Notes: generated by a model from the sequence alone, not told the origin. 64,000 bases of DNA from Candidatus Nanoarchaeia archaeon (GCA_028279685.1 JANQNG010000002.1:11922-75921), one strand, 5' to 3'; counted from the first letter of the stretch, positions 39,502-63,595 are shown. A program made the numbers and translations.

Positions 39502-39543
39502 TTTATAAAGTTTTCCATTTTTATTCCTGATTGGTAGTAATAA

Positions 39544-43979: not shown

Positions 43980-43991
43980 TCAACATACCCC

Positions 43992-47269: not shown

Positions 47270-47308
47270 TGATTTTCTGAAAATCTTCTGGATAAATCAG
47301 GAAAATCA
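47270..47308. promoter_or_regulatory. inverted repeat TGATTTTCTGA...TCAGGAAAATCA upstream of the Lrp promoter
   Basis: Seen directly. A minus-strand TATA-like ACATATAAAG (47252-47260) lies about 30 nt upstream of the Lrp start at 47225. Confidence 0.3.
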
Positions 47309-49374: not shown

Positions 49375-50627
49375 ACTACCACCTTCTCATACATAGCATC
49401 AATATGTTTACTTAGTTTCTTTTCTGTCATATTCGGTATGTTTTTTGATAGAAAAAAAGGTTTAATGTATTCTATCTCTTTTTGCAGACTACGCACTGTT
49501 TGATAAGCTGCATCAATAGTAAAACAAACATCAAACTCAGTTGAATTTCTTTCACTTTCAAAAGATTTTGACACATCACATCTAGAAAAATCATGAAAAT
49601 GCTCTTTAAAATATGCTATTTCTCTTTTCATTTTGTTATGCATCATTCCCACTTTCGAATCATAAGGTGAAGCAATAAGATAATCATTTACTGTACGAAT
49701 AAACGTTCTTAGTTTCGATATATACTGTCTGGTATTTTCTAATGCGCTTTGAAGGTCAGTACAACTGTTCTTTTGATCCTTGTATAATCTCTCTCTATAT
49801 TGTTCTGTTCGAGGATCATGAAAGTTTATTATTCTATATGCTGCTTCGAGAACTTTTTCAGCAGGATTTAATAACTCATACGAAGCACATAATTCTTGTT
49901 GTCTTTCGATGAAATCTTTAATTTCATTAACTAATACTTTACTAGTGATGTTAGATATAGATGTCTTCGCACTCATCATTCTATTATAATTCTCGCCAAG
50001 TGATGTTGATTCTGTTGTTTCCATCACAACTTCTTTTTTGGCAGAATCATCAGTAACCCATTTTACTCTTTCTAGAGATATAGATACTTTTTCCGCTCTT
50101 TTTTTGAGTAACGCAATCATGCTCTCCTCAGGACATATATTAGAAGCTATCACATCCTCAATAGTATCTTTATCAATATTATCGATGAATGCATCTATCA
50201 TCAGTATTGCTTTAAGATCATGAATATCAGAAGCGTTCTTGATAAGTGATCTGGCCATTGTACTATTAATCATACTCGAATATTGAGATCCTGCAATATG
50301 AGATTCTATATTGGAAATAGATATATTCTTTTTTCTCTTTGATAATGAATTTCCATTTCGTCTATTTGCAGCATAAGTAAATAAATCAAGAAGATGTTTG
50401 TTATTCGCAAAAAGTATATTCGAAGGTATTTTTTTTTGATCACTTATTCTCTTAAAATAATCGCAAGCGACAGCATTTCGCAGATTATGTGCTCCCACGT
50501 GGCGATGTCTTGATAATTCTGGAGCAAAATAACTTAAAAATAAAGAAGATCCGAGAGGAAGGCTATGATTTACTTCTGCTTTTCTTTCTACTGCTCCTAT
50601 AATATGTGCAATTGTCATAATCATCAC
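49371..50627 (-). CDS. hypothetical protein
   Basis: 418 aa ORF whose stop and start overlap its neighbours (operonic). Confidence 0.5.
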   Translation of the reverse strand: MMIMTIAHIIGAVERKAEVNHSLPLGSSLFLSYFAPELSRHRHVGAHNLRNAVACDYFKRISDQKKIPSNILFANNKHLLDLFTYAANRRNGNSLSKRKKNISISNIESHIAGSQYSSMINSTMARSLIKNASDIHDLKAILMIDAFIDNIDKDTIEDVIASNICPEESMIALLKKRAEKVSISLERVKWVTDDSAKKEVVMETTESTSLGENYNRMMSAKTSISNITSKVLVNEIKDFIERQQELCASYELLNPAEKVLEAAYRIINFHDPRTEQYRERLYKDQKNSCTDLQSALENTRQYISKLRTFIRTVNDYLIASPYDSKVGMMHNKMKREIAYFKEHFHDFSRCDVSKSFESERNSTEFDVCFTIDAAYQTVRSLQKEIEYIKPFFLSKNIPNMTEKKLSKHIDAMYEKVVV

Positions 50628-51334
50628 TCTTTGATTTGTAATTCAACTATGCCATTAATCTTATGTAGTGCATTAAGTCCATCTTTCTTGATATCGATAT
50701 TATGTGCATTGAATACTTCATCAACCATTGTTATTCTTTCTTTTACACTATCACATAATCCGTTCACATCACTATAAGCGGGATGAATACGAAGAAGATA
50801 GTCACACAACACCACCATGTGATGCTCTTCAGCAGAGATCTTTTCTAAGTACTTATCAAATGAAAGCTGAACATATTTGTGAATAACATTCTCTGCCATC
50901 TCCTGTTCAATTGATTTCATAGGCTGCCTTCCGCCACGCTGTACTCTTCTGATAAAATTATTGAGCTTCTTTGAGCATGATTGAGCAACATAAGCTGCCC
51001 AATAAGAGGGAGATATGTGTTGTTCCAGAAAATCATAGAGCTGCTTATCTCCATACTCCTGAGCATAGACATCAGACATGAGTAATACTGCTGTGTTCTT
51101 TGAAAAATCAATTTTATCTACATCCAAATGCTTAAGATAATATTTTGATAATAGATGTTCCTCTAATGTAAGCCCCTCTTCTGAGCACTTCTTCGTTGGT
51201 TCAGCTATAATGCCTTGTTCGAAAGATATCTTTCTTTGATAAACACCTCTAGGAATTCTTTTTCCTTTACCCTGTACTTTAATATTATGAGATCTTGCTT
51301 TCAGTAGCTGTCTTACATCAACCATAGCTTTCAC
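50624..51334 (-). CDS. hypothetical protein
   Basis: 236 aa ORF; overlaps both neighbours. Confidence 0.5.
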   Translation of the reverse strand: MKAMVDVRQLLKARSHNIKVQGKGKRIPRGVYQRKISFEQGIIAEPTKKCSEEGLTLEEHLLSKYYLKHLDVDKIDFSKNTAVLLMSDVYAQEYGDKQLYDFLEQHISPSYWAAYVAQSCSKKLNNFIRRVQRGGRQPMKSIEQEMAENVIHKYVQLSFDKYLEKISAEEHHMVVLCDYLLRIHPAYSDVNGLCDSVKERITMVDEVFNAHNIDIKKDGLNALHKINGIVELQIKE

Positions 51335-52628
51335 TCGATTTAGTTTTTTTAATACCTTTACCTGATTTTTTCGAAATCTTTCCGGATTTCTTCATAATTC
51401 GTCTAATTTTCTTCAATTTAGTTGCATGTTTTTTCTTTGCATATCTGTTCTTACTAAGAATATTTTTCAATTCATTTCTAGTATCTTTCGTTATCTCATC
51501 AAATTCCTCTTTATGCTGCTTGTAAATTTCTTTCATTGCTTCAATACGCTTATCCCATCTCCATATCCTCGTGCCTCTTTCCACATAATCACCTTTTTTT
51601 ATATCTCCGACATTACCACGATATTCTCCTGCAAGTATTTTTGAGACTATTCCAAGCACTCTCTCTCCTTTATTCTCTGACTGTTGTAATTTTTGATAAT
51701 ACTTTGTAATCAATGAACGATATCTTCTCTTTGGTATTTGTTCTTCAGAAAAGGTTTTCTCTTTCAGCACATTCTTCGTCTTAATTTTTGTTTCTAGATC
51801 ATCACCAACTTGCTTTTTTGAATCATCATCATTTTTTCCAACAACTTGATATTCTCCCAGTCTTTTTCCATCTCTACCAATAATCACTCTTTCTTTCAAT
51901 TGAGTCACAATATCTTCTTTTTCCTCATCATCTGGAGTAAAATGACCTTCTTCTATGATATTCAAAGGAATATGTTCATAGCGATTTCTTATTGCTATTC
52001 TCTCTCCTTCTTGAATTTGAGGATACGCTATATTCATTGTCGCATATGGTGTGTCATTATGTTGGTTCATCACAAGACCGTAAGTATACTCAAGATAATA
52101 TTGTTCGCCATCCTCCTGCTCAACAGGAATATCTTTGAACATCCTATAATCAGTAAGAAAATTTTCAAATGTTCTGACATCCCTGCCAGAGAAAAAATTA
52201 GAAAATTTTCCATGAGAATGAGCCCATCCTGCAATTCGTTTATTGAGATTATGTTTAATATCTCTCTCTGATGTAATAGCACCTCCCCCTGATATTGTAC
52301 AATATCCTGGATAGACCGTCTGATCATGTGCAATATACGCATCATTGATAACAGGTTTTCCTTCTCTAACTGTATCTTTCTCCGCAAGAAGATAAATTGC
52401 CATTTCATGCGAAGGTAAATGAGCCTCTTGAGTTATATTCCCAAATGCACTAATAATATGTTCAAGTTTTTCTTTCGCATAAGCTGTTATATTAATTCCT
52501 TCAGCAGCAAAAGCATTAGCATGCTCTCTTATTTCAGCATTTTCCTCATCAACAGTAGTATATCCAAGCATTATTTCACCTTCTTGCATTACGTTCAACA
52601 TAGATTCGTTGAGGTAATTCCGTAGCAT
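51318..52628 (-). CDS. JAB/MPN (JAMM) metalloprotease-domain protein with a long C-terminal extension and Lys-rich tail
   Basis: Complete JAMM motif: E (SHEMAIYLL) ... HSHGKFSNFFSGRD (HxHx7Sx2D). The C-terminus is KKKHATKLKKIRRIMKKSGKISKKSGKGIKK. Confidence 0.75.
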   Translation of the reverse strand: MLRNYLNESMLNVMQEGEIMLGYTTVDEENAEIREHANAFAAEGINITAYAKEKLEHIISAFGNITQEAHLPSHEMAIYLLAEKDTVREGKPVINDAYIAHDQTVYPGYCTISGGGAITSERDIKHNLNKRIAGWAHSHGKFSNFFSGRDVRTFENFLTDYRMFKDIPVEQEDGEQYYLEYTYGLVMNQHNDTPYATMNIAYPQIQEGERIAIRNRYEHIPLNIIEEGHFTPDDEEKEDIVTQLKERVIIGRDGKRLGEYQVVGKNDDDSKKQVGDDLETKIKTKNVLKEKTFSEEQIPKRRYRSLITKYYQKLQQSENKGERVLGIVSKILAGEYRGNVGDIKKGDYVERGTRIWRWDKRIEAMKEIYKQHKEEFDEITKDTRNELKNILSKNRYAKKKHATKLKKIRRIMKKSGKISKKSGKGIKKTKSSESYG

Positions 52629-54057
52629 AACTCATAGGACCATCAATGACATTTTTCATTGAATTATAATCAAGTACATGAATCATCTCTCCAACCATGG
52701 CTGCAGCGATAATTTCATTAGACATTACTACACTAGGATTAGGACCATCGCAAATATTTCCCCCTTCTGGAAAACCTTCAAGATCTAGTTGATCTCCTAT
52801 TGAAGAAGTTACACCAGGTATATAGACAGCAACTTGCCCTGCTTTTGGATGTGTTCCTCCATCTATATAAGGTACGTTGTGTTTTTTAGTGAATGTATTC
52901 ATCCAAATTCTTGCATGCTTATTATCTACACATCCAAGCACCACATCATATTGCTTTTTAGTAAGTTCCTTTTCAGAAATTAATTTTATATTCTCTCTCT
53001 TATCTTCTCTAGAAAGCACATCTCCTAATTTTCCATTATAGACATCTGATTTTATCTTATGATCTATATTGCGAACACGCATAGAAAGCACTTCAGCCTT
53101 ATTGTGTCCGATGAAATTTCTCAATTCTGTCTGTCTATTAAGATTTTTGTGTTCTGCAACATCATAATCAACAAAATCAATCCTGCCAATTCCAAGATAG
53201 CGTAAATAAATCGAAGCCCAATTTCCTAATGCTCCCGCACCAACCACCAGCACATTATTCTTTCTATAAGTCGGAAGATTATTCTTTCTTAGATTAGATT
53301 TTAATCCTTTTCTATTCTTACTATATAAGTTATAGATAAGACGATGATTACTTGGAAGATGAGCATCATCATCGTTATACTTAAATGCATATTTCCTCAC
53401 TTCTTCAACAGCTATACCAGAAACAATTCCACTTGTAAAGCCTCCTTGATCCTTTCCATTGAATTCCTCATGTACAAGAGCATCAAGATCAGGATTCTCT
53501 TTAAGCACATTTACTCTTCCTTTATTCTTTGGCCAATAGCAAGCAATAGCGCTTCTATCTTCATCTGATGATAACGAAATAACAGGTATAGGGTTGTTCT
53601 TTCTCCTAAATGCGTAGCGAAGCACTTTTTCTTTCGAAACAACTTCATTTGTAGCATCGATAAGTATATCTGGGTTAAACCCCATGATAAACGCTTCAGC
53701 AAATCTACCATGTCTTTTGATCGTTGGAGGTGTATGGTCAATTTGATGTAATGCCTCAAAAACCATATCACTCTGCTTTTTTCCTGCAATTTTTTCTCTC
53801 TTTCCATAGAGAAATCCTTTGTCTTTTGAAGTAACTGAACGTGAATTATCAAAATAATAAATATTCCTAACACCTAAACCATAAAGTGATGCAAGCACCA
53901 TTTGCCCAAGCAAATTAGTACCCACTACAGCCACTTTTAGCTTATTTACCATCTCCTGCCTTTCATTACCCAGCATACCATCTCCGAATGCAACACTATT
54001 ACAAACATGAATTTCAGAAACCGCATCTACGTCACCCATTCGCATCGACCCCCACAA
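52576..54057 (-). CDS. E1-like (ThiF/MoeB/UBA-family) activating enzyme with two tandem Rossmann/adenylation-like domains
   Basis: The C-terminal active-type domain has VLVVGAGALGNWASIYLRYLGIGRIDFVDYDVAEHKNLNRQ. The N-terminal degenerate domain has VAVVGTNLLGQMVLASLYGLGVRNIYYFDN. Its start overlaps the upstream JAB gene. Confidence 0.75.
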   Translation of the reverse strand: MWGSMRMGDVDAVSEIHVCNSVAFGDGMLGNERQEMVNKLKVAVVGTNLLGQMVLASLYGLGVRNIYYFDNSRSVTSKDKGFLYGKREKIAGKKQSDMVFEALHQIDHTPPTIKRHGRFAEAFIMGFNPDILIDATNEVVSKEKVLRYAFRRKNNPIPVISLSSDEDRSAIACYWPKNKGRVNVLKENPDLDALVHEEFNGKDQGGFTSGIVSGIAVEEVRKYAFKYNDDDAHLPSNHRLIYNLYSKNRKGLKSNLRKNNLPTYRKNNVLVVGAGALGNWASIYLRYLGIGRIDFVDYDVAEHKNLNRQTELRNFIGHNKAEVLSMRVRNIDHKIKSDVYNGKLGDVLSREDKRENIKLISEKELTKKQYDVVLGCVDNKHARIWMNTFTKKHNVPYIDGGTHPKAGQVAVYIPGVTSSIGDQLDLEGFPEGGNICDGPNPSVVMSNEIIAAAMVGEMIHVLDYNSMKNVIDGPMSYATELPQRIYVERNARR

Positions 54058-55388
54058 CCATTATTGTAATATTCTCTTTCATATGTTTTGATAAGATTTA
54101 GCATAGACTCACAAACATCTCTTTTCTGCTCGAGTTTCTTAATTCCGATCACCCAACCAGGAAATACATTATTACTTATCCTTCCATTAATCAAATCATG
54201 AACATCATCAATATATTTTTTCTTTGGCACTAATACATCTAATAATTCATTGAATCTTGTATCAAGAATTGAAGTCTGTTTATTGCGGTGGTCTTTATCA
54301 GACATAATGACGGTTTGTGCATCACATATAACACCATAGACTTCCTCTATTGGATTAAAAGAATTAACCCCTTTGATATTATTAAAATTATGAGAAACAA
54401 TATTTGTTGCTTCATGAATTCTTTTATAGATCGAGTCATAAGTACTATTAAAAAAATCTAATTGTTTTTTCTTATGAGAATTTGTCTTTGCAAATTTATC
54501 TTCTTCTACATACAACGTTCTTTCTCTATTGAAAATTCCTGCTGGAATACCTTTTTTCTTGACCAGATTTTTATCTCTAGTAACAATTATGCGTTCTCTA
54601 ATCTGATTGACCCTTGATTTAATCTGCTGATCAATATCTTCTGTTTTAATACAAGGCACTTGCTCTTCTTCGATCTCTTCAAAAGGAACATTTTCAATTA
54701 GTGTAATTCCATTTCCCTTAGAGTAGCCAATTACTGTAAATGGCCTATCATTATCAGCATTGAATACCATTCCATATGTGTATTGCACCTCTGCAGAACC
54801 GTAAGACATAACTGTTAAAGGATGATTCTTTACCTTCTTAAGATCGAACTTATCAAAAAAACTGGAACGAACCATCTTCTGTTTATTTGGTTCCACTTGA
54901 AGATACGTTTTCCCCTTGTGTTTTACAAAACGCACATCGTCTTCTTTTTCAGTTTCTTGCATTTCAACATCAAGAAACATCTTATTGTCTTCGAGAAAAT
55001 AATTGAATGTTTTTCTATCTCTTTTTGAAAAGAAAGTGGAAATATCCCCATGCGAATGCCCCCATCCAACAACACGCATTCTTAGATTATTCTTGATATC
55101 CCTCATAGAAGTAATCAACCCATCACCTGATATAATACAATAATCAGGATACGCCTCTTGATCATGGGCAATATAGACATCACTAATAAGAGGTCTGTTC
55201 TTTTTTGCTTCTTCTTTTGTAGCAAGCATCAAAAATCCTATCTCATATGTTGGCAGACTTAAAGAAGAACAAATTGCTTTCACTCTTCGTGCAATAAGCT
55301 CACTTTTCATTTTTGCACGAGAAGTAATCCTGATAGGCGAGATCATGCTTTCAATCTTTTTATCTAATGTTGTCTCCCTCATTTTCAA
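54027..55388 (-). CDS. JAB/MPN (JAMM) metalloprotease-domain protein, paralog of 51318..52628
   Basis: VVGWGHSHGDISTFFSKRD is a perfect HxHx7Sx2D. It shares the context DVYIAHDQEAYPDYCIISGDG with DAYIAHDQTVYPGYCTISGGG in the paralog. Confidence 0.75.
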   Translation of the reverse strand: MKMRETTLDKKIESMISPIRITSRAKMKSELIARRVKAICSSLSLPTYEIGFLMLATKEEAKKNRPLISDVYIAHDQEAYPDYCIISGDGLITSMRDIKNNLRMRVVGWGHSHGDISTFFSKRDRKTFNYFLEDNKMFLDVEMQETEKEDDVRFVKHKGKTYLQVEPNKQKMVRSSFFDKFDLKKVKNHPLTVMSYGSAEVQYTYGMVFNADNDRPFTVIGYSKGNGITLIENVPFEEIEEEQVPCIKTEDIDQQIKSRVNQIRERIIVTRDKNLVKKKGIPAGIFNRERTLYVEEDKFAKTNSHKKKQLDFFNSTYDSIYKRIHEATNIVSHNFNNIKGVNSFNPIEEVYGVICDAQTVIMSDKDHRNKQTSILDTRFNELLDVLVPKKKYIDDVHDLINGRISNNVFPGWVIGIKKLEQKRDVCESMLNLIKTYEREYYNNGCGGRCEWVT

Positions 55389-56695
55389 TTCTTAAAGATT
55401 CTTTCCTCAGATATACCATGTTTTTTTGCATAGTCTTTTGCATCATCCTCATTTAACGCAATAGGAGTATAATTAGAGATGCTATGCACAGGAGTCAGCG
55501 TATTACCAATATATCCTGTTGTAATATTTCCTGTTGCTTCCCAGAGCATAAGTGCAACTCTTCGTGCTAATCCTTTATCTTTTATAGAATACTTATGAAG
55601 AAACTTAACATTAAGGTAAGACCATCTTTCCGCACCTGCAAAACAAATTCTTCCACTTGGATAGACAAAAGGATGATTATATGGCATATCACGTAATGTC
55701 GGCTCATTCTTAATAGTAACATATCTATCAGTAATATCTAGTGTTGTACCTACTCGAACACGTTTACTTCCTTCTTTTCCTTCTTCATTGAATGCATAAT
55801 ATTTCCCATCCTTCTCAAGCAAATAAGGCTCAATCTCTGCATAGAACAAATACTCATTATTGCCTCTAGGTTCATATCTTATATTACCTACTTTCTTTCG
55901 AGTTTTTTTTACTTTTTTTTTAGAAATATTTGCATCAATTTCTTTTTCTTTTTTATACAATAATAAAATTTGATTCTTAAATTTTTTACCATGTTGCAAC
56001 GCAACTTGTTCTACATCTGCACGAAGACGCAATCTATATTCATCTGCTAGCTTCTGAAGAGGCATTAATGGCTTAAGCGAATAATCTGTTCCTTTGAATG
56101 TTAAAGTTCCGTTTCTTCTAGCTTTAGAAGAAATAAGTTCATAACATGTACCAGCAATAGTCACAATACCTGGACGAGGAATTAAATCATAAATACGCGT
56201 TTCTATGTTATGTAAGTCATCTAATGCAGGATAACTATTTATTGCTGTATCGATCTTAGGATCTTCAATAACAACTTCCTTCTTTTTTTCTCTTTGATAA
56301 TTATAAATCTTAAAAACATCTTGAATAAACCTATCAAGAGATTGCTCTTTCATAGAACCATAGTAATTTATTTTTTTCGAAACTTGTGAGGATAGTTCTT
56401 TGAGTCTTCTAATAAGTTTAAAATCAATAACCCAACTCATATACTCCTTAAGATCATCTTCATTATCTTTGAATAATTCTCTCTGAAAAAGAGAAAGCTC
56501 ATCAGACTCAAAGAGAGGATATTGCTCCTTAAGATATTTCCATGCATTACCATTTGCTGAAGGAGTATTCCTTTCAATAGTATAGATACGAGAATCTAAC
56601 AACGCAAATGTTTCTCCAGACATCATGAACTTATCTAATATTGTTGGAGCTAAACAAATCTCTTTTTTCATAATACCCCCTCTACAAAAAAGCAC
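55385..56695 (-). CDS. large protein with a C-terminal ubiquitin-conjugating-enzyme (E2/UBC)-like domain
   Basis: MPYNHPFVYPSGRICFAGAERWSY matches the UBC active-site signature HPN[IV]xxxGxIC[LF]xxLxxxW, including the catalytic Cys. The N-terminal ~300 aa has no assignable domain. Confidence 0.5.
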   Translation of the reverse strand: MLFCRGGIMKKEICLAPTILDKFMMSGETFALLDSRIYTIERNTPSANGNAWKYLKEQYPLFESDELSLFQRELFKDNEDDLKEYMSWVIDFKLIRRLKELSSQVSKKINYYGSMKEQSLDRFIQDVFKIYNYQREKKKEVVIEDPKIDTAINSYPALDDLHNIETRIYDLIPRPGIVTIAGTCYELISSKARRNGTLTFKGTDYSLKPLMPLQKLADEYRLRLRADVEQVALQHGKKFKNQILLLYKKEKEIDANISKKKVKKTRKKVGNIRYEPRGNNEYLFYAEIEPYLLEKDGKYYAFNEEGKEGSKRVRVGTTLDITDRYVTIKNEPTLRDMPYNHPFVYPSGRICFAGAERWSYLNVKFLHKYSIKDKGLARRVALMLWEATGNITTGYIGNTLTPVHSISNYTPIALNEDDAKDYAKKHGISEERIFKN

Positions 56696-56704
56696 ATAAC
56701 ATGC

Positions 56705-57184
56705 CTAATCACAGAGCTTGTCCTCAAGGTTCACATACGCTGATGTTCCTCCAGGCACACTTCTTCTGGCAATAAAATCAATCAATTTATACTTCTCTTT
56801 AGCGTTGGTTTCAGAATCAATTTCTTCCTTTGTTCTAATAATCGAATCATATTCAGCAACTCGACCATCTAAATCCAAAGGTATTGGTTCTCCATTATCA
56901 ACTATTGCCTTGATCGAGACCTTGTAGTTATCAGGATCCGCATTCATATCTCTGAACCATTTACTCACTGTATTTGCTACATCTCTTTCTTCCGCATTGT
57001 ACGCTTCATTCAATGCATCTGCTTCTGGATCGATAAGTTTTCTAATCAAATCCTCCACAGTTCCTTCAAGATAAGTCTGTTCAACTTTCTTCACCAGTAA
57101 GACACCCTCATCATTGTCCTTTATCGGGACCATAGCATCAAGAGTGACATATATTGGCTTGTCATCCATAATATCAACCTCCAA
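56705..57184 (-). CDS. small acidic protein; candidate ubiquitin-like modifier precursor (internal Gly-Gly followed by a 13-aa tail)
   Basis: The ORF is robust: 159 aa, the first gene after a hairpin+T8 element, immediately upstream of the E2-like gene. The Ubl call itself is inferential. It rests on the ...ARRSVPGG|TSAYVNLEDKLCD C-terminus and beta-strand-like segments (KPIYVTL, YKVSIKAIV). Confidence 0.3.
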   Translation of the reverse strand: MEVDIMDDKPIYVTLDAMVPIKDNDEGVLLVKKVEQTYLEGTVEDLIRKLIDPEADALNEAYNAEERDVANTVSKWFRDMNADPDNYKVSIKAIVDNGEPIPLDLDGRVAEYDSIIRTKEEIDSETNAKEKYKLIDFIARRSVPGGTSAYVNLEDKLCD

Positions 57185-57228
57185 AAGTTATACTATACTA
57201 ATATCGTAATCATTCATAAGTCTTTACC

Positions 57229-57264
57229 AAAAAAAACCGCAAAATTTCCGTCGAGAAACGGAAG
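57229..57264 (-). terminator. hairpin CTTCCG-N8-CGGAAA followed by T8 on the minus strand, directly after the ATP-grasp stop codon
   Basis: Plus strand reads A8-CCG-CAAAAT-TTCCG-TCGAGAAA-CGGAAG; the TAA stop of 57267..58211 abuts it. Confidence 0.45.
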
Positions 57265-57266
57265 AA

Positions 57267-58211
57267 TTACATTCTATATTTCTTTCCTTGTGCAATATGC
57301 ATTAAGCGTCTTCCTATGAGTCTATTGAAATCATGCATATTCTCAAAATCAGGATGATCAAAGAATTTCCGGTCAATAACTCCGTATCTCCCATCACAAT
57401 CACATTCAATCACATAATTGTTTCTCTCGTGATCCTGTACAATATCAACCACACCAATATCAAATCCAACAGCATCTGCAGCCTGCAAAGCAATCCTCCT
57501 GAGATCTTCTGATGGCTCCATAAACACATAATGCGCTCCTCTAGCGATATTGATAATAGCTTCGCCAGGAGTATTAACATGTTCCTTTTCTCGTATGGTT
57601 CCAAAAGGCACCTCGTCTCCTAGCACATACATTCTCAATACACTTTTGTTAAAATCCCCATTATCTCCTATATATTCTTGCAGAAGATAAGGAGCAGCAA
57701 TAACAGAATCACCTATCTCAACATATCTTTCCTTTTCTACAATATCATATTTTCCTTCGTTATTATAAGCTACATAATTACCATGCTCCTTCATCAATAC
57801 AAAATGCTTATTTCCTGCACAATCATAAGGATACTTCAGCATAGCAATATCTCTTGTACTCATGAAAACATCTATCGCCCTCTTATTAGAGCAAAGCTCA
57901 AAGAAAGGATGGGAAATGTTGTTCTTCTTGAATAACTCATTAGATTTTATTTTATTCATGGCAATCTCTTGAGCACTATATGCGTTTATAATGGGCGTCC
58001 TCTGAGACCACCTCTCAAAATCGAATTTTGGACCGTGCATCATCATATAAGCAACATCATATCCTTCTAGCAGTTCTACATTCCCTTCTGTAAGACGATC
58101 ACATACAAACCCTTCCCTACGTATAGTCTGCTGAAGAGGCTCTACAAAATGTACATCATAATACGTATCTTTCCCCGCAATAATAGCAAATTTCAAACTG
58201 ATCCCCTCCAT
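57267..58211 (-). CDS. ATP-grasp amidoligase (RimK/glutathione-synthetase-like)
   Basis: MLKYPYDCAGNKHFVLMKEHGNY, LLQEYIGDNG...LRMYVLGDEV, and VGFDIGVVDIV...YVIECDCDG (ATP-grasp C-terminal VLEVN-type motif). Confidence 0.6.
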   Translation of the reverse strand: MEGISLKFAIIAGKDTYYDVHFVEPLQQTIRREGFVCDRLTEGNVELLEGYDVAYMMMHGPKFDFERWSQRTPIINAYSAQEIAMNKIKSNELFKKNNISHPFFELCSNKRAIDVFMSTRDIAMLKYPYDCAGNKHFVLMKEHGNYVAYNNEGKYDIVEKERYVEIGDSVIAAPYLLQEYIGDNGDFNKSVLRMYVLGDEVPFGTIREKEHVNTPGEAIINIARGAHYVFMEPSEDLRRIALQAADAVGFDIGVVDIVQDHERNNYVIECDCDGRYGVIDRKFFDHPDFENMHDFNRLIGRRLMHIAQGKKYRM

Positions 58212-58852
58212 TCTTCATACCAATGACTCGCCTCTCCATCAAGCAATACTTTTACTTCTTTATGTTTGACATCATACGTGTGATAAGCAGGATCAATAAA
58301 AAGATCTCCTGGTTCAAGATCAACCCAAGCACATGCGTGTTTTACATTTCTTCCAAAACAATCTACTTTTACACTAGTGTAATGACTTGTTAATCCTACT
58401 GTTCTTGCCATAACAACATACAAGTAAGCCATCTCTCCACAAACACCTTCACGATCACGCATTACCTCTTCTGCATTCTTATATCCATTGGTTCTCATTG
58501 ATTTTCCATAATCTATATTATTCTGCATCCAATCAAAAATACTTCTTGCTTTCTCTTGTAATGTAGAAAGTTGTATTACTTCTTTCTTTAGAAAGTTAGC
58601 AGCATTCACAGGCATGCCAAAAGGACTCTGTATGGTATCATCAACAATAAGCACTCTGTAATTACTGTTGATCTTGCTTAAGTCAAGAGTAGTATCTATC
58701 TGTTTCCTTTTCTTGAGCTTAAACCGAATATGAGATGTATCATCACAATAAGGATTAACCTGCGTTCTTCTTTTTTTCAGCGATTCTCTGATAGTACTAT
58801 CATTGTGCATTCTTCCATGAAGCTTTCGCTTAATAAGTACATTAAGAGTCAT
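58193..58852 (-). CDS. transglutaminase-like cysteine peptidase-fold protein
   Basis: GVCGEMAYLYVVMARTVGL (catalytic Cys context of the transglutaminase-like core), with downstream His/Asp candidates (HACAWVDLEPGDLFIDP). Confidence 0.6.
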   Translation of the reverse strand: MTLNVLIKRKLHGRMHNDSTIRESLKKRRTQVNPYCDDTSHIRFKLKKRKQIDTTLDLSKINSNYRVLIVDDTIQSPFGMPVNAANFLKKEVIQLSTLQEKARSIFDWMQNNIDYGKSMRTNGYKNAEEVMRDREGVCGEMAYLYVVMARTVGLTSHYTSVKVDCFGRNVKHACAWVDLEPGDLFIDPAYHTYDVKHKEVKVLLDGEASHWYEEWRGSV

Positions 58853-58861
58853 ATATTCTCC

Positions 58862-59923
58862 TCATGAAAGATATCTCATCGAATCTGTGAGATTTGCTCT
58901 CTGGACATCTCCTAAGAGCTGTGCCATCACAGCATTCTGTCTATCAGCAGCATCTAACCCTGGATGTGACTGTATAGTATCTCTTATATTTTCCAATGCG
59001 GAACTATAGCTCGCATTAAGATCGTCCTGATATTGTTGGAGCATACCAATACCTGTTGAAACTATACTCATCATATCTGAAAGTTCTACAACAGGCTCTA
59101 CTGATCCTGCAAGATCATCAAGATGTTCTTGATAAAATGAAGTGAGTGTTGACATTCTCTGTGCACCTTCAATAACAGCAGCAAATAATCGTTCAGAGAG
59201 CCATATATTCCAAATACGCTGCCTAATATGAGTAACGCTCATCGCTGAATTAAAAAACTCTCCTGTCGTATCACTTTTCTCTCTCACTACTTTCATATAT
59301 TGTTGAAGCGCATCACTATGTTTTTCGGGATCAGCATCCGGATCCAACCCTTGTAACGTTTCCTGAAGCGATTTCTCATTATACACTTGTTTAGGAACTT
59401 CCTCTTCAAGAAATTTTTTTCTCAAAGTCTCATCTCTGTTTTCAGGAATAAGCGTATCTAATGTTCCTTTTACCTCATCAAGCTTGCTTGAATATGACTC
59501 AACCATCGAATCAAGAATTGAATTTAATTGTCGCACTCTTTCCTGCTGTTCAGGGAAAATTTGATGTAAATCACGGCGATTTATGGGTTGTCTTACTATT
59601 TTATCAGCAAAATAATATTTAACATCAAGCATAGTTTTTTTCAATGGTCTTGCTTCTCTGTATTCAACATATCTTTCAAGTTCTTGCTGTCCTTTATCTA
59701 TCCCTTTAATAATATAATTAACATCTTCCATTCGAGGATTAACATTAACTGCTGTTGAACCCCCTAAGTAAGGGAGCACATCAGTTCTTGTTCGACCTAT
59801 TCTCATAGGATCTCCTGTCTGATTTCTTGGACTTGTTTGCGTTCTTGTTGTAAGAGAATTATCTTTTGTATTAACAACTACTTTTCTTCTTAATTTAAGA
59901 CTATCTTTTATTGAATCGACCAT
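58862..59923 (-). CDS. hypothetical alpha-helical acidic protein (possible Alpha-E-like partner of ATP-grasp/TGase systems)
   Basis: 353 aa from the first ATG (the ORF track starts at GTG 59932). It leads the three-gene group and is preceded by a TATA-like ATATAAAA and an AAAGGTGG ribosome-binding site. Confidence 0.45.
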   Translation of the reverse strand: MVDSIKDSLKLRRKVVVNTKDNSLTTRTQTSPRNQTGDPMRIGRTRTDVLPYLGGSTAVNVNPRMEDVNYIIKGIDKGQQELERYVEYREARPLKKTMLDVKYYFADKIVRQPINRRDLHQIFPEQQERVRQLNSILDSMVESYSSKLDEVKGTLDTLIPENRDETLRKKFLEEEVPKQVYNEKSLQETLQGLDPDADPEKHSDALQQYMKVVREKSDTTGEFFNSAMSVTHIRQRIWNIWLSERLFAAVIEGAQRMSTLTSFYQEHLDDLAGSVEPVVELSDMMSIVSTGIGMLQQYQDDLNASYSSALENIRDTIQSHPGLDAADRQNAVMAQLLGDVQRANLTDSMRYLS

Positions 59924-59989
59924 AGCAACCACCTTTTATTTAAATTAAACATAATATCAACGATCAAAACTATTTTATATGTCTTCGCT

Positions 59990-60024
59990 AAAAAAAACCG
60001 AAACAATTCCGACAGTGATCGGAA
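59990..60024 (-). terminator. hairpin TTCCGA-CAGTGA-TCGGAA adjacent to an A8/T8 run
   Basis: Seen directly. On the minus strand the order is hairpin, then T8, then the BRE/TATA of the next gene. Confidence 0.45.
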
Positions 60025-60041
60025 AAACTTCAATATACTCT

Positions 60042-60323
60042 TTAATCAATTATCTTATCACCAATTGAATAAGCTGGCATCTGTTCTACAACAGTATATG
60101 CAGATTGCTGCATCGTCATGCCGTTTGCTTCTTCACAACCGTTCATAAGACTCCCTACAATTATTCCTCCAAGAACCAATCCTTCAATATACAATGCCAT
60201 ATCAAGTTTTGTGCGCTCTCCTTTATCGTATTTTTCTTCATAGATGTAATTTCCTCTGACATCACCGCCAGTTTTAGCACGCTTTGCCAAACGATACAAT
60301 GCATTAAACGCTAATACTATCAT
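60042..60323 (-). CDS. hypothetical small protein with a Gly-rich hydrophobic segment
   Basis: 93 aa; LVLGGIIVGSLMNG is a possible TM or glycine zipper. Confidence 0.4.
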   Translation of the reverse strand: MIVLAFNALYRLAKRAKTGGDVRGNYIYEEKYDKGERTKLDMALYIEGLVLGGIIVGSLMNGCEEANGMTMQQSAYTVVEQMPAYSIGDKIID

Positions 60324-60652
60324 TGTTTTCCCTCATATTCACTATTTTTGTCCTTTCTCTTTTGAAGACTATACGGCAATGATGTTTGAGCAGGCATAAC
60401 CCCTTCCATATCATTTTGAACCAAAGGCTGCTTCTTCAAAGTATAGGGTGCAATTTTAAGTTCTTTTTCTAGTCTCTCGCGCTCATCAAGAGGCAGATCA
60501 TTCTTCAGTAGTTTATATGCACCATGACCAAACATTCCTGCCAATGATGATAAAAAAAAGCTACTAACAATCGAGTCTGATTTCACTGTCTTCTTTGTAC
60601 ACTGATAAAATCCTCCTAAACAACCATACCCGATAAGCTTTCCAAGACCCAT
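60320..60652 (-). CDS. hypothetical small protein
   Basis: Likely start MGLGKLIGYGCLGG, preceded by GGGGAAAAT. The ORF track extends it to 60784. Confidence 0.4.
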   Translation of the reverse strand: MGLGKLIGYGCLGGFYQCTKKTVKSDSIVSSFFLSSLAGMFGHGAYKLLKNDLPLDERERLEKELKIAPYTLKKQPLVQNDMEGVMPAQTSLPYSLQKRKDKNSEYEGKQ

Positions 60653-60662
60653 ATTTTCCCCT

Positions 60663-60854
60663 TTATTCGAGAAGCTCTTCAAGTGATTTCTCATATGTTG
60701 TATCTGGCATTGCAGTCGTATCTGCAATAGTAATTTCAGCTGTTGATTCAGCAACCCCTTTCTGATAGCCAATATTATATACAACAGGAGAAACTATAAG
60801 AGAGGCTAAAGCTCCATAAAATACAAAACGCTTAGCATAAGTAAATACACTCAT
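60663..60854 (-). CDS. small membrane protein, hypothetical
   Basis: 63 aa with one TM helix (FVFYGALASLIVSPVVY). Confidence 0.35.
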   Translation of the reverse strand: MSVFTYAKRFVFYGALASLIVSPVVYNIGYQKGVAESTAEITIADTTAMPDTTYEKSLEELLE

Positions 60855-61339
60855 TCTCCTTTCACCTTTTTAACAATGTAATCTTTTGCCTCTTGCATTT
60901 TCTCCCAGACTAACTCTCCTTTCTCTTTAGCAACTTTTCCTGCCTCTTCAAACGCATCATCGATACTCCCCATAGCGTCATCAATCACTTGTTTCTTCAT
61001 ATAGGCTTTCGCTTTTGATCCAAAATGATCTATCAACTCAGGCTGTTCTTCTACTTTTTCTTTTACATATTCAAACATTATCTTCCTCGTCTTCATGTTT
61101 ATATCATCGTATTCGAGCGAAGTAATTCCAAGATATGCTATTCTATTTGCATAAGTAGGATGCTCTGCAAGAACCTCTTGCTTTGCTTCAAGTTTCGATA
61201 CTAAGGCATCAAGTGCTTCATCTTCCGAGCGGCCAAGGCAAGAATACAATCCTACAGCACATAATAATGCGATTCCTGTATAGACAACAAATTTTCCAGC
61301 CCTTTCTTTTTTTGGTTTTCGAGTGTGTGTTGTTTTCAT
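60851..61339 (-). CDS. membrane-anchored hypothetical protein
   Basis: N-terminal basic stretch plus TM helix with Cys (IALLCAVGLYSC), then an acidic helical domain. Confidence 0.45.
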   Translation of the reverse strand: MKTTHTRKPKKERAGKFVVYTGIALLCAVGLYSCLGRSEDEALDALVSKLEAKQEVLAEHPTYANRIAYLGITSLEYDDINMKTRKIMFEYVKEKVEEQPELIDHFGSKAKAYMKKQVIDDAMGSIDDAFEEAGKVAKEKGELVWEKMQEAKDYIVKKVKGE

Positions 61340-61377
61340 AACAACAGATTAAATAGTATTCTTTTAATGTCTTGCCC

Positions 61378-61400
61378 AAAAAAAATCGGAAGAATTCCGA
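61378..61400 (-). terminator. A8/T8 run plus hairpin TCGGAA-GA-ATTCCGA, ~20 nt downstream of the 61419..61760 stop
   Basis: Seen directly. Confidence 0.45.
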
Positions 61401-61418
61401 AACACTCCAGAAAATATG

Positions 61419-61760
61419 CTAAAGATAATATTTTTTTAGATGCGTGTTAAAATCAACAACCATATTTTTAAAATATTCACTGTTTTCATCAAATCCTAAC
61501 AACGCAAGATTAGCGGCACCTTTCTGTTGGATGGTACAGTCATTATACTTATTAGTGAAATTAATAGTATTTCCATTCGACGATCGAATAAAATATATTG
61601 TTCCTTTATTCATAATCTCGAAAATCTCATACAAACATCCAGAAAAACTTGTACTTGATTTACTTCTAGCATCATATTTTCGAAAAAGTTTTCTCACCTC
61701 TCTTTCAAGCTCTGAAGAGTTGTTCGGCATCAATGACTGTAACATAATATTGACTCCCAT
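61419..61760 (-). CDS. hypothetical protein
   Basis: 113 aa ORF bounded by A8/T8 elements on both sides. Confidence 0.45.
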   Translation of the reverse strand: MGVNIMLQSLMPNNSSELEREVRKLFRKYDARSKSSTSFSGCLYEIFEIMNKGTIYFIRSSNGNTINFTNKYNDCTIQQKGAANLALLGFDENSEYFKNMVVDFNTHLKKYYL

Positions 61761-61846
61761 ATGCGCATATATATCTGGTTGTTTTTATGACTTACCTAAA
61801 AAAAACCGTAAAACTTCCGAAAAAACTAGAATAATCTTGTCAGTTT

Positions 61847-62329
61847 TCACAATGATTCTTTTGCTGTTTCCATCAAATTAAACAACATAATATCAGTCAT
61901 GAACGCTTCTTTCTTGATATCGTCAACAATATAATAGATTTGCGTTGATTCTATCTTAAATGCATCCTCTAATGATTCTTTGAACGCCTCCATATCTTTG
62001 ATCTGCTTGAAAACACCCTCAACAAGAAAATCATAGCCGTTATTAATCTGATACATGCTATTCACCGAAGGATGCTTGAAGAGATGCTTCTGCAGGTTCT
62101 TTCTATCTTCTCTATTGACTTTAATGAAGAGCTGTGCTTTTGCATGAAACCCAAGCTTAGAGAAATCAACAAGGCTGGTGTGCTTTGTGATAATATTTTC
62201 TTCATGTTGTTTCATTCTATCAAAGATAGTTGAGACAGGTATCCCTGTCTTTTTACTCATCTTAGTCAGTGCAATTCGTGCATTTGATCTCAATTGTGCC
62301 AGTATTTTCAGATCGTTTTGATTCACCAA
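61847..62329 (-). CDS. lrp: Lrp/AsnC-family transcriptional regulator (paralog of 34887..35363)
   Basis: HTH_AsnC plus RAM domain; 160 aa. Confidence 0.85.
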   Translation of the reverse strand: MVNQNDLKILAQLRSNARIALTKMSKKTGIPVSTIFDRMKQHEENIITKHTSLVDFSKLGFHAKAQLFIKVNREDRKNLQKHLFKHPSVNSMYQINNGYDFLVEGVFKQIKDMEAFKESLEDAFKIESTQIYYIVDDIKKEAFMTDIMLFNLMETAKESL

Positions 62330-62413: not shown

Positions 62414-62614
62414 ATATGAATTCATAGCAATAATCATGTTTGTATAGCTATCTCTAGTTCGTTGTTTCTAGAAAAATACTGCCCAAAAAACTCGCGTAAT
62501 TGTCCCCGAAAACTTTGTATTATACATTCTTCAGGGAAACTCATATTTTAAGATTCTTATCAAAATTTTGTGAAAAATAACAAAATTTATATAATAAATG
62601 TCATTATTTATTAT

Positions 62615-63595
62615 ATGAGAAGGGATAAACTAAAAATCGATCTTCTTGATCGTAAGATCCTTTACTATCTTGACATCAATGCGCGGCAGCCAACCACCAC
62701 ATTAGCAAAAAAAGTCCGTGCTAGCCCCGCAACTGTTGAATACAGGATCAAACGTATGGAACGAGGAGGGTTAATAAAGAATTATATGACCTTTCTTGAT
62801 GCGGGAAAGATAGGATACATGGTTTGGAATGTCTATCTTGAACTGCATAATGTTACAGAAAAAGAGGAATCTGAGCTGTTCACATATCTTTGTAATTTAG
62901 AGAATAGTTGGTGGGTTGCTCGTTGTGCAGGAAAATGGGACGCAGTCTATAGTATAGGAGTCAAAAACATCAAAGAGTTTTACCGTACAGTAACTGATGT
63001 CTGGAATAGATTCAGCAAGTATATCATCAGACAAAGTATTGAAGCGCATGTTGAACTTGCAGTAATATCAAGAGGCTATTTTCTAAACAAGCCAGGCATT
63101 AGTGTTCCTTGGTATACAACATTTCAGCAAGAGATACTAACAGAAATAGAAAGAAAAATACTTAAAACTATCTCGGAAAACGCAAGAATGCCAACCACAG
63201 AAATCGCAAGAAAAACTACGTTGACTCCTAAAATCGTCTCTTATCATCTCAAAGATCTTGAACGAAGAGGAATTATTAGTAGATACAGACTTCAACTTGA
63301 TGTTTCGAAAATTGGATTCAAATTCTTCAAAGCAATTGTCTATCTAAAGGTTTTTACCTATGAAATGAATATGCAACTCAAAGAATACTGTATTCAAGAA
63401 GGTAATATCTTTCATTATGAGCAAAAAATAGGACACTGGATGCTTGAACTCGAACTTGATGCAAGAGATTTCGAGCGTGCAGATAGCCAGATGAAGAAAC
63501 TGAAAGAGCGTTTCCCTGACTTTATTAGAAATTATGAATTGCTACTCATCACAGAAGAACTCAAAGGAGACCTTGACTTTAGTAAGGTATTGTAG
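62615..63595 (+). CDS. internally duplicated (tandem) Lrp/AsnC-like regulator
   Basis: Two HTH_AsnC-like units (LDRKILYYLDINARQPTTTLAKKV...IKRMERGGLI and IERKILKTISENARMPTTEIARKT...LKDLERRGII), each followed by a RAM-like segment. Start taken at MRRDKL. Confidence 0.7.
   Translation: MRRDKLKIDLLDRKILYYLDINARQPTTTLAKKVRASPATVEYRIKRMERGGLIKNYMTFLDAGKIGYMVWNVYLELHNVTEKEESELFTYLCNLENSWWVARCAGKWDAVYSIGVKNIKEFYRTVTDVWNRFSKYIIRQSIEAHVELAVISRGYFLNKPGISVPWYTTFQQEILTEIERKILKTISENARMPTTEIARKTTLTPKIVSYHLKDLERRGIISRYRLQLDVSKIGFKFFKAIVYLKVFTYEMNMQLKEYCIQEGNIFHYEQKIGHWMLELELDARDFERADSQMKKLKERFPDFIRNYELLLITEELKGDLDFSKVL

Follow-up and report, generated by a model that had tools for sequence, protein, structure and literature searches.

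The window analysed here is a 64,000-nt stretch of a Candidatus Nanoarchaeia archaeon chromosome (GCA_028279685.1, JANQNG010000002.1:11922-75921), within which a conserved island of ~12 kb, holding at least 14 genes, extends over approximately 49.4-61.4 kb. Inside this island, the genes for a helical protein, a transglutaminase-like (TGL) enzyme and an ATP-grasp ligase constitute one block of transcription-unit size. From the highest coordinate downward, the genes are:

60042..61339, minus strand: upstream unit of four small genes
60851..61339, minus strand: F5, with one TM segment; kept ahead of the helical gene in other loci
60663..60854, minus strand: F9, with one TM segment; other loci keep it in this position as well
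60320..60652 and 60042..60323, minus strand: two small genes of the upstream unit, not conserved in other loci
58862..59923, minus strand: helical protein, 353 aa; ATG start, with AAGGTGG ahead of the ATG
58193..58852, minus strand: TGL Cys-His-Asp enzyme, 219 aa; PF01841 and PF04473
57267..58211, minus strand: RimK/LysX-like ATP-grasp ligase, 314 aa (309 aa is more probable, with TTG 58196 as start); PF08443
56705..57169, minus strand: candidate ubiquitin-like (Ubl) modifier S150, 154 aa; C-terminal GG, beta-grasp model
55385..56671, minus strand: E2-like protein, 428 aa; invariant motif (alignment A4) at residues 331-346
54027..55382, minus strand: JAMM/JAB metallopeptidase 1; HSHGDISTFFSKRD (HxHx7Sx2D) at residue 109
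52576..54045, minus strand: E1-like ThiF adenylyltransferase, carrying an additional Rossmann-like domain at its N terminus; PF00899 over two stretches, 145.7 bits
51318..52589, minus strand: JAMM/JAB metallopeptidase 2; HSHGKFSNFFSGRD at residue 124
50624..51325, minus strand: F11, a conserved island gene (N terminus MVDVRQLLK); homologues at the same position in L003, L005 and L017
49371..50618, minus strand: F8, a conserved island gene; homologues at the same position in L003, L005 and L017

An earlier note on this DNA had described the helical, TGL and ATP-grasp genes as three overlapping minus-strand genes. All three ORFs stand, in position and in strand; overlap is confined to the TGL and ATP-grasp genes, with a 9-nt gap separating the helical and TGL genes. 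The helical ORF could be extended to a GTG at 59932. For the ATP-grasp gene, TTG 58196 is the most likely start, preferred because of a GGAGGGG RBS, an overlap of 4 nt with the stop codon upstream (seen also in L005) and matching N termini among homologues. Since homologues of the three ORFs keep the same order in other contigs, these are not chance reading frames. A viral or mobile origin was rejected, the window carrying aaRS, SecDF and Nre genes and being part of a cellular archaeal chromosome; searches of IMG/VR yielded no relatives of the ATP-grasp or TGL protein.

The helical protein founds a DPANN-specific family of long helix-bundle proteins of ~340 aa, for which an exhaustive HMMER search recovered 44 cluster representatives. 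Its AlphaFold (AF2) model is all-alpha (mean pLDDT 79.8, helices at residues 119-192 and 199-275) and corresponds to a generic long helix bundle; fold searches were non-specific, returning generic helix bundles only, and the protein matched no Pfam family and no PDB sequence. Its proposed identity as an Alpha-E partner did not survive profile comparison, as PF04168 was matched by none of 41 family members (threshold E<=0.01, or E<=0.1 for the window protein). An LXG/WXG match (17 bits where the cut-off is 26.5; E 0.005) was judged to be noise and, along with sporadic coiled-coil matches, was dismissed, each occurring in only one or two of the 41 family members. The family alignment (A1) contains the motifs LFxxQQxNVxxLN and YQxxL; Q126 of LFxxQQxNV is nearly invariant across the family, in which an N-terminal LK motif is also present. 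In the window protein the N terminus reads MVDSIKDSLK, with disorder predicted at residues 13-57. An N-terminal MxDxIxxxLK motif is common to the helical protein and several unrelated island proteins, and the motif Lys is present in many island proteins.

The assignment of the second gene to a transglutaminase-like Cys-peptidase is upheld by Pfam matches above curated cut-offs, to Transglut_core (PF01841, 50.3 bits, cut-off 23) and DUF553 (PF04473, 23.8 bits, cut-off 20.5). The catalytic triad is intact (C138, codon at 58439..58441; H172, 58337..58339; D187, 58292..58294) and is kept in all five full-length orthologues, with the Cys aligned to the GVC motif of 3ISR and to the catalytic-Cys region of the PNGase 2F4M. 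A basic N-terminal region carries three I-x3-L-K/H repeats, and neither a signal nor a TM segment was predicted. The TGL enzyme is probably an (iso)peptidase.

The third gene was likewise correctly called RimK-like: PF08443 (39.6 bits, cut-off 21) is the sole Pfam match at E<=0.1. In NCBIfam the protein falls below every equivalog cut-off (TIGR00768, 46 against 143.4; MptN, 44.5 against 350; LysX, 39.2 against 275.6; CofF, 22 against 300), all matches being RimK/MptN/LysX/CofF-like; a weak match to archaeal pseudomurein-type ATP-grasp was also recorded. By profile search, the closest solved relatives are LysX (1UC8), then RimK and ArgX, with 3VPD and RimK 4IWX/5ZCT also found. Close relatives number only five among 5.8 billion proteins, and genome and metagenome scans gave only one and two short loci, respectively. 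The ATP-grasp represents an island-specific subfamily, marked by invariant GFDIGVVD and VIECDCDG, whose invariant ATP/Mg-binding set comprises K121 in LK.P..CAG (numbered from TTG 58196; K126 when ATG 58211 is taken as the start), Q(E)[FY]I, R.YV.G, N.A.GA, GVVD and E-C-D, the last replacing the Mg-binding E-x-N motif.

Adjacent to the block, the E1/E2/JAB Ubl operon recognised earlier is confirmed, encoding the Ubl-like S150, an E1, two JAMM peptidases and an E2-like protein. S150 bears Gly139-Gly140 followed by a 14-residue tail that is disordered in its model, the fold of which is a beta-grasp with insertions that matches BilA and SAMP1. The GG is found in 6/9 members of the S150 family, and one member ends exactly in GG; the tails that follow lack a conserved acidic C terminus such as RimK or LysX would use. 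For the E2-like protein, alignment A4 reveals the invariant motif Y-x-HPFV-(x5-9)-C-x-x-G; the protein has no Pfam or PDB sequence match, and in L015_16397 its core is fused to an S150 domain. The E1 has NCBIfam and PADLOC E1 matches, and no curated family threshold was reached by the E2-like, Ubl or JAB proteins. A known defence system (PADLOC; Bil or CBASS Cap2 type) was rejected, given that only the E1 adenylation domain matches E1-E2 models; PADLOC returned nothing for the helical/TGL/ATP-grasp trio, and no meaningful match for S150, the E2-like protein or the JABs.

A recurrent palindrome with a T-run links these units. The hairpin and T8 placed by the earlier note at 57229..57264 is present (57229..57263), and a near-copy upstream of the helical gene (59990..60024) means that the trio is bracketed by the same element. 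The copies in the window are:

59970..60024, minus strand: element upstream of the helical gene; TTCCG-N8-CGGAA-N4-TTTCGG, then T8, AGCGAAGAC and ATATAAAA
57211..57263, minus strand: element between the ATP-grasp and S150 genes; TTCCG-N8-CGGAA-N4-TTGCGG, then T8, GGTAAAGAC and TTATGAAT
61361..61399: operator-like element at the upstream small-gene unit
about 51343..51384: weaker copy inside the 3' end of the JAMM 2 gene

A conserved CGGAA-N3-5-TTCCG palindrome with a T-run and a BRE/TATA-like element lies ahead of each of four island units (that of the membrane proteins, the trio, that of S150/E2/JAB/E1 and that of F11), and the sequence CGGTTTTTTTT occurs three times against an expectation of 0.09. 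In L003, L005, L015 and L017, the Ubl genes have equivalent copies upstream of them. Within the window the element is restricted to the island, except for an incomplete match at 28049, in which the T-run, GGnnAAGnC and the TATA-like portion are missing. Its stems have modest stability (-8 to -10 kcal/mol, z -1.3 to -2.3; only -8.3 kcal/mol for that at 59970..60024) and stand 7-9 nt from the T-run, and conservation resides in the CGGAA half-sites, the T-run, GGnnAAGnC and the TATA-like box. For these reasons a plain intrinsic terminator was rejected and the element was read, by sequence resemblance, as a promoter/operator, which may also double as an oligo-T terminator.

The gene order recurs in contigs from other DPANN (Woesearchaeota/Nanoarchaeia) members at 20-40% protein identity, and in the genomes sampled the island is confined to DPANN archaea. 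One gene order is common to the window, L003 and L005: helical - TGL - ATP-grasp - S150 - E2-like - JAB - E1 - (JAB) - F11 - F8. Beyond the window, the trio is contiguous in L005 and in no other locus: L003 has one inserted gene within it (with L003_2164 identified as a helical-family member by profile A1), and in L015 it is dispersed, the ATP-grasp gene being embedded among five S150 paralogues in a sequence that ends before any E1 could appear. L017 and L021 display helical - TGL - E2-like - S150 without the ATP-grasp, L014 holds the helical and TGL genes without it, L012 has only adjacent helical and E2-like genes, and L019 has a helical gene with neither TGL nor ATP-grasp. No E1 or JAB was detected within the retrieved flanks of the minimal islands L021, L012 and L014. 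In this small sample of eight informative loci, helical, TGL, E2-like and S150 genes form the recurrent core across divergent loci, with ATP-grasp, E1 and JAB genes limited to larger island versions.

The adjacency to the Ubl operon is therefore kept in divergent genomes, with the same cis element ahead of both units. The view of the trio as a module of its own is not sustained: helical and TGL genes occur without the ATP-grasp (L017, L021), the helical gene occurs with that of the E2-like protein alone (L012), and the ATP-grasp gene tracks the Ubl genes rather than the helical gene, being directly upstream of the gene(s) for S150, the small GG-protein, wherever it is present. The trio is not a self-contained tagging module; it is the front end of a larger undescribed DPANN island around a Ubl protein, centred on S150 with its C-terminal Gly-Gly and tail, the E2-like protein, the E1 and the JAMM peptidases. 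Two coupled tagging chemistries, as first proposed, are possible, yet accessory enzymes of one Ubl system fit better than an independent second system.

We consider it somewhat probable that the peptidase processes or deconjugates the Ubl and that the ligase modifies a carboxylate on it, with the substrates of both inferred solely from gene order. The TGL enzyme would act as a cysteine (iso)peptidase on S150, removing the tail after Gly-Gly to expose a carboxylate and/or cleaving S150-Lys isopeptides; in minimal islands it would be the sole peptidase. The ATP-grasp would activate a carboxylate of S150, most likely the C terminus, as an acyl-phosphate and amidate it with an amino acid or amine. 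Addition and removal in a cycle of this kind would control whether S150 can enter the E1-E2 pathway, in the way that tubulin tyrosine ligase and vasohibin act at the C terminus of tubulin. The helical bundle protein, which has no catalytic signature, may serve as scaffold, adaptor or substrate, and the MxDxIxxxLK N-terminal peptide could be a docking or acceptor-lysine motif. The two JAMM peptidases of the window could carry out processing and deconjugation instead of the TGL enzyme. TGL is paired less tightly with S150 than with the helical gene, and its true substrate may therefore be the helical protein.

The cis element and the N-terminal peptide can be joined to this Ubl-processing scheme in a broader reading, which we put forward tentatively and regard as possible but doubtful in its entirety, namely of an undescribed DPANN Ubl island combining Ubl-tail writing and erasure, N-terminal-peptide docking and a single operator regulon. 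Here, the ATP-grasp would write, and the TGL enzyme erase, a modification of the Ubl C-terminal tail that controls entry to the E1/E2-like pathway; the amphipathic MxDxIxxxLK peptide would mark substrates or partners and dock on the helix-bundle or E2-like protein; and the whole set would form one regulon driven by the dedicated CGGAA-N3-5-TTCCG operator. In minimal islands, conjugation might run through the TGL enzyme alone.

In an unlikely alternative, the TGL protein is a true transamidase and the ATP-grasp an optional extra. Either (a) the invariant helical Gln would be joined to the Lys of the N-terminal LK motif to give a covalent scaffold, for which the nearly invariant Q126 in LFxxQQxNV, the LK motif of the same family and the motif Lys of many island proteins speak, or (b) the S150 tail would be cleaved and the Gly-Gly acyl-enzyme passed to a lysine in the manner of a sortase or transglutaminase, independently of E1, with the peptide bond of the precursor tail as a conceivable source of energy. 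The flanks of L021, L012 and L014, in which TGL and/or E2-like, S150 and helical genes are kept without E1/JAB, would accord with such chemistry; however, E1 and JAB genes may lie elsewhere in these small genomes, Transglut_core proteins of prokaryotes are for the most part considered to be peptidases (PMC3495828), and the match of DUF553 type points to isopeptidase-like relatives (PMC2989375).

We regard it as decidedly improbable that the trio is an autonomous system resembling Alpha-E-Anbu, with a peptide tag of its own added and removed in parallel to the Ubl system. The ligase of the Alpha-E system is a circularly permuted ATP-grasp (Pfam CP_ATPgrasp families), whereas that of the island is RimK-type and not permuted. 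As reported in PMC3495828 and PMC5666114, an ATP-grasp/Alpha-E/TGL operon, often with Anbu, was predicted by Iyer et al. 2009, i.e., a tagging system of ATP-grasp, TGL and helical proteins, and for the TGL domains the prediction is that they reverse peptide tags added by the ATP-grasp (PMC3495828). The window resembles the system thus outlined in combining, in one block, an ATP-grasp amide ligase, an opposing TGL Cys peptidase and an all-helical protein; its three genes run in one direction, lie close together and have the same element on either side, and they recur contiguously in L005, interrupted by one gene in L003, and dispersed in L015. It differs from those accounts in that the helical protein is not Alpha-E (0/41 family members matching), Anbu is absent and the trio is not inherited as a unit, helical and TGL genes occurring without the ATP-grasp in L017, L021 and L014, and the helical gene without either in L012 and L019. 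Furthermore, the ATP-grasp always adjoins S150 genes, the helical protein is paired with the E2-like one, and the block, unlike the bacterial Alpha-E system as presented there, is archaeal (DPANN) and set within an E1/E2-like/JAB/Ubl system with a shared cis element. Highly improbable, finally, is action of the ATP-grasp and TGL proteins on a small molecule or cell-envelope peptide (e.g., cofactor glutamylation or pseudomurein-like peptide turnover) with Ubl adjacency devoid of functional meaning: the closest named ATP-grasp families are cofactor or amino-acid ligases (MptN, CofF, LysX, RimK), with a weak match to the pseudomurein-type enzyme, and LysM and polysaccharide-deacetylase genes lie 8-10 kb downstream, but all equivalog scores are far under cut-offs, the ATP-grasp subfamily is found only in these islands, gene order is kept across loci at 20-40% identity with the same cis element ahead of both units, and the LysM/deacetylase genes are outside the conserved island.

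Several known systems can be set beside the island and the proposed processing of the S150 tail, our preferred reading. The substrate of LysX is the small carrier LysW, whose C-terminal residue it amidates, and the island resembles LysW-LysX and RimK-S6 in that the ligase gene adjoins that of a small protein, its candidate substrate, with LysX and RimK as the closest solved relatives; it departs from them in equivalog scores far under cut-offs, E-C-D in place of E-x-N, and an S150 without the LysW zinc-ribbon or acidic C terminus. In the tubulin tyrosine ligase/vasohibin-SVBP cycle, an ATP-grasp adds a C-terminal residue that a TGL-type protease with a small helical partner removes, vasohibin acting, as a Cys protease of transglutaminase-like type, against an ATP-grasp ligase (PMC6937246, PMC6642083). 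This is analogy only, with no detectable sequence relationship and a Ubl, not tubulin, as the proposed substrate. PeiW and PeiP, TGL-type Cys-His-Asp enzymes of archaeal viruses, cleave an epsilon-Lys isopeptide bond (PMC2989375, PMC4592898), and thus a transglutaminase-type fold can act as an isopeptidase. The window TGL, likened to them via a shared Pfam clan, has the same type of catalytic triad and an archaeal setting; the Pei enzymes, however, are secreted lysins of methanogen viruses, whereas the window protein has no signal or TM segment. As in bacterial BilABCD/E1-E2-JAB operons (PMC1779556) and archaeal SAMP-UbaA-JAMM, the island has a ThiF-family E1 and HxHx7Sx2D JAMM peptidases; its S150, like BilA and SAMP1, is a beta-grasp with C-terminal GG, and an E2-like HPx...C motif is present in its 428-aa protein. 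It stands apart from the Bil and SAMP systems in that S150 has 154 aa with insertions and PADLOC recognises the E1 domain only, and we found no description for those systems of a TGL enzyme, RimK-like ligase, helix bundle, small membrane proteins or N-terminal motif such as the island carries.

Prokaryotic Ubl systems are now mined as antiviral defences and as models for the origin of eukaryotic ubiquitin signalling. To these the island adds an archaeal (DPANN) version in which nearly every family is unannotated, two further enzymes (an ATP-grasp ligase and a peptidase of papain/transglutaminase fold) tied physically, and apparently regulatorily, to a Ubl, a candidate short recognition motif and a candidate operator. 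Were the ligase and peptidase to act on the Ubl tail, this would represent a prokaryotic form of C-terminal "tail editing" controlling a Ubl modifier, mechanistically parallel to the tubulin tyrosination cycle. Retention of a 12-kb island in genomes of ~1 Mb (L012 derives from a complete genome of 1.16 Mb) suggests that its role is important, possibly in the host-dependent lifestyle of DPANN cells.

All three minus-strand ORFs that the earlier note had read as an Alpha-E-like tagging module are present, and the ATP-grasp and transglutaminase-like (TGL) calls both exceed curated Pfam thresholds:

58862..59923, minus: helical protein; ATG after AAGGTGG (a GTG at 59932 lengthens the ORF by three codons)
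58193..58852, minus: TGL protein; Pfam Transglut_core PF01841, 50.3 bits (threshold 23), and DUF553 PF04473, 23.8 (threshold 20.5)
57267..58211, minus: ATP-grasp; Pfam RimK PF08443, 39.6 bits (threshold 21)

Described as three overlapping genes, the trio does contain a TGL/ATP-grasp overlap, but the helical and TGL genes are separated by 9 nt. Translation of the ATP-grasp probably begins at a TTG at 58196, given its GGAGGGG ribosome-binding site, its 4-nt overlap with the TGL stop codon, the same overlap in the orthologues of contig L005, and its fit to the N termini of all homologues. The window (35% GC) is cellular archaeal chromosome, with genes for aspartyl- and arginyl-tRNA synthetases, SecD/F, and archaeal Nre; searches of it for tRNA genes and Rfam families were negative.

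Gene order was compared across contigs encoding ATP-grasp or helical relatives, with genes grouped by phmmer. Here, S150 denotes a 154-aa ubiquitin-like (Ubl) protein encoded at 56705..57169 in the window, E2-like its 428-aa neighbour, F5 and F9 small one-TM genes, and F11 and F8 two families at the opposite end of the island.

Gene order in the window and in other DPANN contigs
Window: F5(TM) - F9(TM) - x - x / helical - TGL - ATP-grasp / S150 - E2-like - JAB - E1 - JAB - F11 - F8
L005: the window's order, with two S150 paralogues and a single JAB
L003 (Woesearchaeota MAG): the window's order, with one additional gene between TGL and ATP-grasp
L017: F5 - F9 - helical - TGL - E2-like - S150 - E1 - JAB - F8; without ATP-grasp
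L021: AsnC-type HTH - helical - TGL - E2-like - S150 - E2-like; without ATP-grasp, no E1/JAB nearby
L015: F5 - x - helical - TGL - four small genes - E2-like - S150 - (E2 core + S150 fusion) - ATP-grasp - S150 - S150 - S150
L012 (1.16-Mb complete genome): helical - E2-like only, as in CP010425
L014: helical - TGL, contig end directly after
L019: 133-aa gene - helical only

With pairwise identities of only 20-40%, these loci represent old, independent samples. Other loci preserve the association of the trio with the Ubl/E1 operon, a positive outcome for the main check set by the earlier note; the trio itself is not the conserved unit, the recurrent core instead being helical, TGL, E2-like, and S150. 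ATP-grasp is optional, and wherever it occurs (4/4 loci), S150 gene(s) lie immediately downstream. The additional L003 gene (3934..5022) encodes a 362-aa product without a Pfam match and has a 4-nt overlap with the ATP-grasp start.

The previously noted hairpin followed by T8 is present at 57229..57263 and forms part of a longer conserved element comprising the palindrome CGGAA-N3-5-TTCCG (with TTTCGG/TTGCGG as variants), six to eight consecutive T, the sequence GGnnAAGnC, and a TATA-like box, WTATWAAA. Full copies in the window (i.e., palindrome, T/A-run, GGnnAAGnC-like sequence, and TATA-like box) are confined to the minus strand.

Copies of the element in the window and in other loci
61781..61819, minus: full; precedes ORF 61419..61760
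61361..61399, minus: full; precedes the F5 (membrane-protein) unit
59970..60024 (60011), minus: full; precedes the trio, with a sister hairpin copy at 59990..60024, upstream of the helical gene
57211..57263 (57250), minus: full; precedes the S150 unit
about 51343..51384, minus: weaker copy; precedes F11
L003, 2069, 5994, and 12475: precede the helical gene, S150, and F11
L017, 8943 and 12978: precede F5 and S150
L015, 15883, 18414, 18979, and 19603: precede each of four S150 paralogues
L005, 11347: precedes the second S150

At 28049 in the window, there is one partial match, to the CGGAA/TTCCG part alone. The element recurs at equivalent positions despite the low protein identity between loci. 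Its predicted RNA hairpins have low stability (-8 to -10 kcal/mol), and 7-9 nt separate them from the T-run; the element is accordingly best read as a putative regulon-specific promoter with operator, which may in addition act as an oligo-T terminator, and not as a terminator alone. On this promoter/operator reading, the trio would constitute its own transcription unit, yet fall in the same regulon as the Ubl operon. AsnC/Lrp-type HTH regulators, one in a tandem double-domain form, flank the island (61847..62329, 46791..47225, and 62570..63595), and in L021 a homologue (9462..9896) immediately precedes the helical gene; such regulators are candidates for binding the palindrome.

The proposed Alpha-E identity of the helical partner did not hold, as Alpha-E was matched by 0/41 aligned family members. 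The window protein has no Pfam match, no other Pfam family was matched consistently across the 41 members, and the family profile gave nothing meaningful against PDB sequences. In an exhaustive HMMER search of 1.8 billion cluster representatives, 44 relatives (E up to 0.001) emerged, mostly of ~340 aa; all those with a source name are labelled Woesearchaeota or Nanoarchaeia. In the AlphaFold model of the window protein (mean pLDDT 79.8), residues 13-57 form a basic, disordered N-terminal stretch ahead of long helices (including 119-192 and 199-275); together with the lack of a consistent family or PDB match, the predicted fold is that of a generic elongated bundle. Only F123, Q126, N134, and L295 are near-invariant, which is not a catalytic signature.

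By sequence, both enzymes of the trio look active. The TGL catalytic residues C138 (GVCGEM), H172 (KHACAW), and D187 (FIDPAY) form an intact triad, kept in all five full-length orthologues aligned. In alignments, the Cys falls in the region of the nucleophile of 3ISR (a putative TGL protease) and of peptide N-glycanase. For the ATP-grasp, the nearest solved relatives are LysX (1UC8), 3VPD (deposited as ribosomal protein S6 modification protein), RimK, and ArgX; scores far under every NCBIfam equivalog cut-off mark a separate subfamily, with only five close relatives among 5.8 billion proteins searched. Its invariant motifs are LK.P..CAG..H, Q-E/R-F/Y-I, R.YVVG, N.A.GA.Y, GFDIGVVD, and VIECDCDG, with E-C-D in place of the usual E-x-N. 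Counted from the ATG at 58211, the GVVD Asp is D256 and the acidic residues of E-C-D are E269 and D271. A second, unrelated ATP-grasp gene (ATP-grasp_3, 29848..31041) neighbours the genes for arginyl-tRNA synthetase (31113..32810) and, one step further, arginine deiminase (32812..34170).

S150 is ubiquitin-like and a candidate modifier. A C-terminal Gly-Gly is found in 6/9 family members, one ending exactly at GG and the others bearing tails of 2-14 residues; in the window protein, PGG139-140 is followed by TSAYVNLEDKLCD. The adjacent E2-like protein, for which Pfam and PDB sequence searches gave no family match, contains an invariant Y-x-HPFV-x(5-9)-C-x-x-G, reminiscent of the HPN...C core in E2 enzymes, with Cys343 as its candidate thioester-forming residue. 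A direct link between these two families is provided by a 356-aa fusion in L015 (16397..17467), in which an E2-like catalytic core (YDHPFVFNDNSICYGG) is joined to a C-terminal S150 domain without GG; at least five S150 paralogues surround the ATP-grasp there. Both JAB proteins have HxHx7Sx2D, and E1 scores 145.7 bits on ThiF. In the E1 protein (52576..54045), GDGMLG at residue 21, a weak 2-Hacid_dh_C match, and two ThiF stretches indicate a further Rossmann-like region at the N terminus, a layout recalling the inactive and active adenylation domains of eukaryotic-type E1s.

Unrelated island families (at least six) share an N-terminal peptide, M-x-D-(P/x)-I-x-x-[KRQ]-L-K. It is carried by all helical members examined, several TGL proteins (where it also occurs internally, in 3-5 tandem copies), F11, the extra L003 gene, several small L015 genes, and, in L019, the gene preceding the solitary helical one; ATP-grasp, Ubl, E2-like, JAB, and E1 proteins lack it.

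Positions of the motif
59894..59923: helical N terminus
58700..58852: TGL N-terminal region
51299..51325: F11 N terminus
L003: 2164, 3220, 3934, 12535
L005: 8138, 9189, 15982
L015: 8293, 8983, 10001, 11322, 12013, 12488, 12956
L019: 9603, 10001

Matches occur in 19/76 island ORFs versus 5/282 ORFs elsewhere, a comparison whose p-value is inflated by homologous proteins being counted separately. The motif may be a docking, degron, or acceptor-lysine signal.

The ATP-grasp belongs to the RimK family, whose enzymes target the C-terminal carboxylates of small proteins, and would most likely amidate a carboxylate of S150. TGL, the sole peptidase present in minimal islands, would serve as the system's cysteine (iso)peptidase, trimming the S150 tail after GG and/or deconjugating the modifier. 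TGL-type Cys-His-Asp enzymes are known as isopeptidases in PeiW/PeiP (PMC2989375, PMC4592898) and have been predicted to antagonise ATP-grasp peptide ligases (PMC3495828). By analogy with tubulin tyrosine ligase versus vasohibin-SVBP (PMC6937246, PMC6642083), an ATP-grasp/TGL add/remove cycle on S150 would gate access to E1. The helical protein would have no catalytic part, serving as a scaffold, adaptor, or substrate with ties to the E2-like protein. Alternatively, TGL could be a true transamidase that cross-links the helical protein or conjugates S150 without E1, as favoured by islands where neither an E1 nor a JAB gene is seen. Further alternatives, each considered unlikely, are an autonomous second tagging module formed by the trio (the earlier reading) and an unrelated metabolic role for ATP-grasp and TGL.

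Our trio departs from the Alpha-E/ATP-grasp/TGL system in three of the four features that define the latter. The island is alike in logic to prokaryotic E1-E2-JAB-Ubl systems; only its E1 attains the family threshold, and PADLOC recognises E1 alone. In full-text literature searches, no archaeal Ubl system was described as having a RimK-type ATP-grasp or a TGL enzyme attached.

After the island, a LysM-containing protein and a polysaccharide deacetylase (47306..49374) are encoded, neither conserved in the other loci. Just downstream of the island (36457..46694, minus) are four consecutive large Ser/Thr protein-kinase-domain genes, broken up by one for a HAD hydrolase (38701..39501). In L015 and L017, too, the islands are flanked by kinase genes, one being homologous to 43992..46694 of the window, and a regulatory link to the island is possible.
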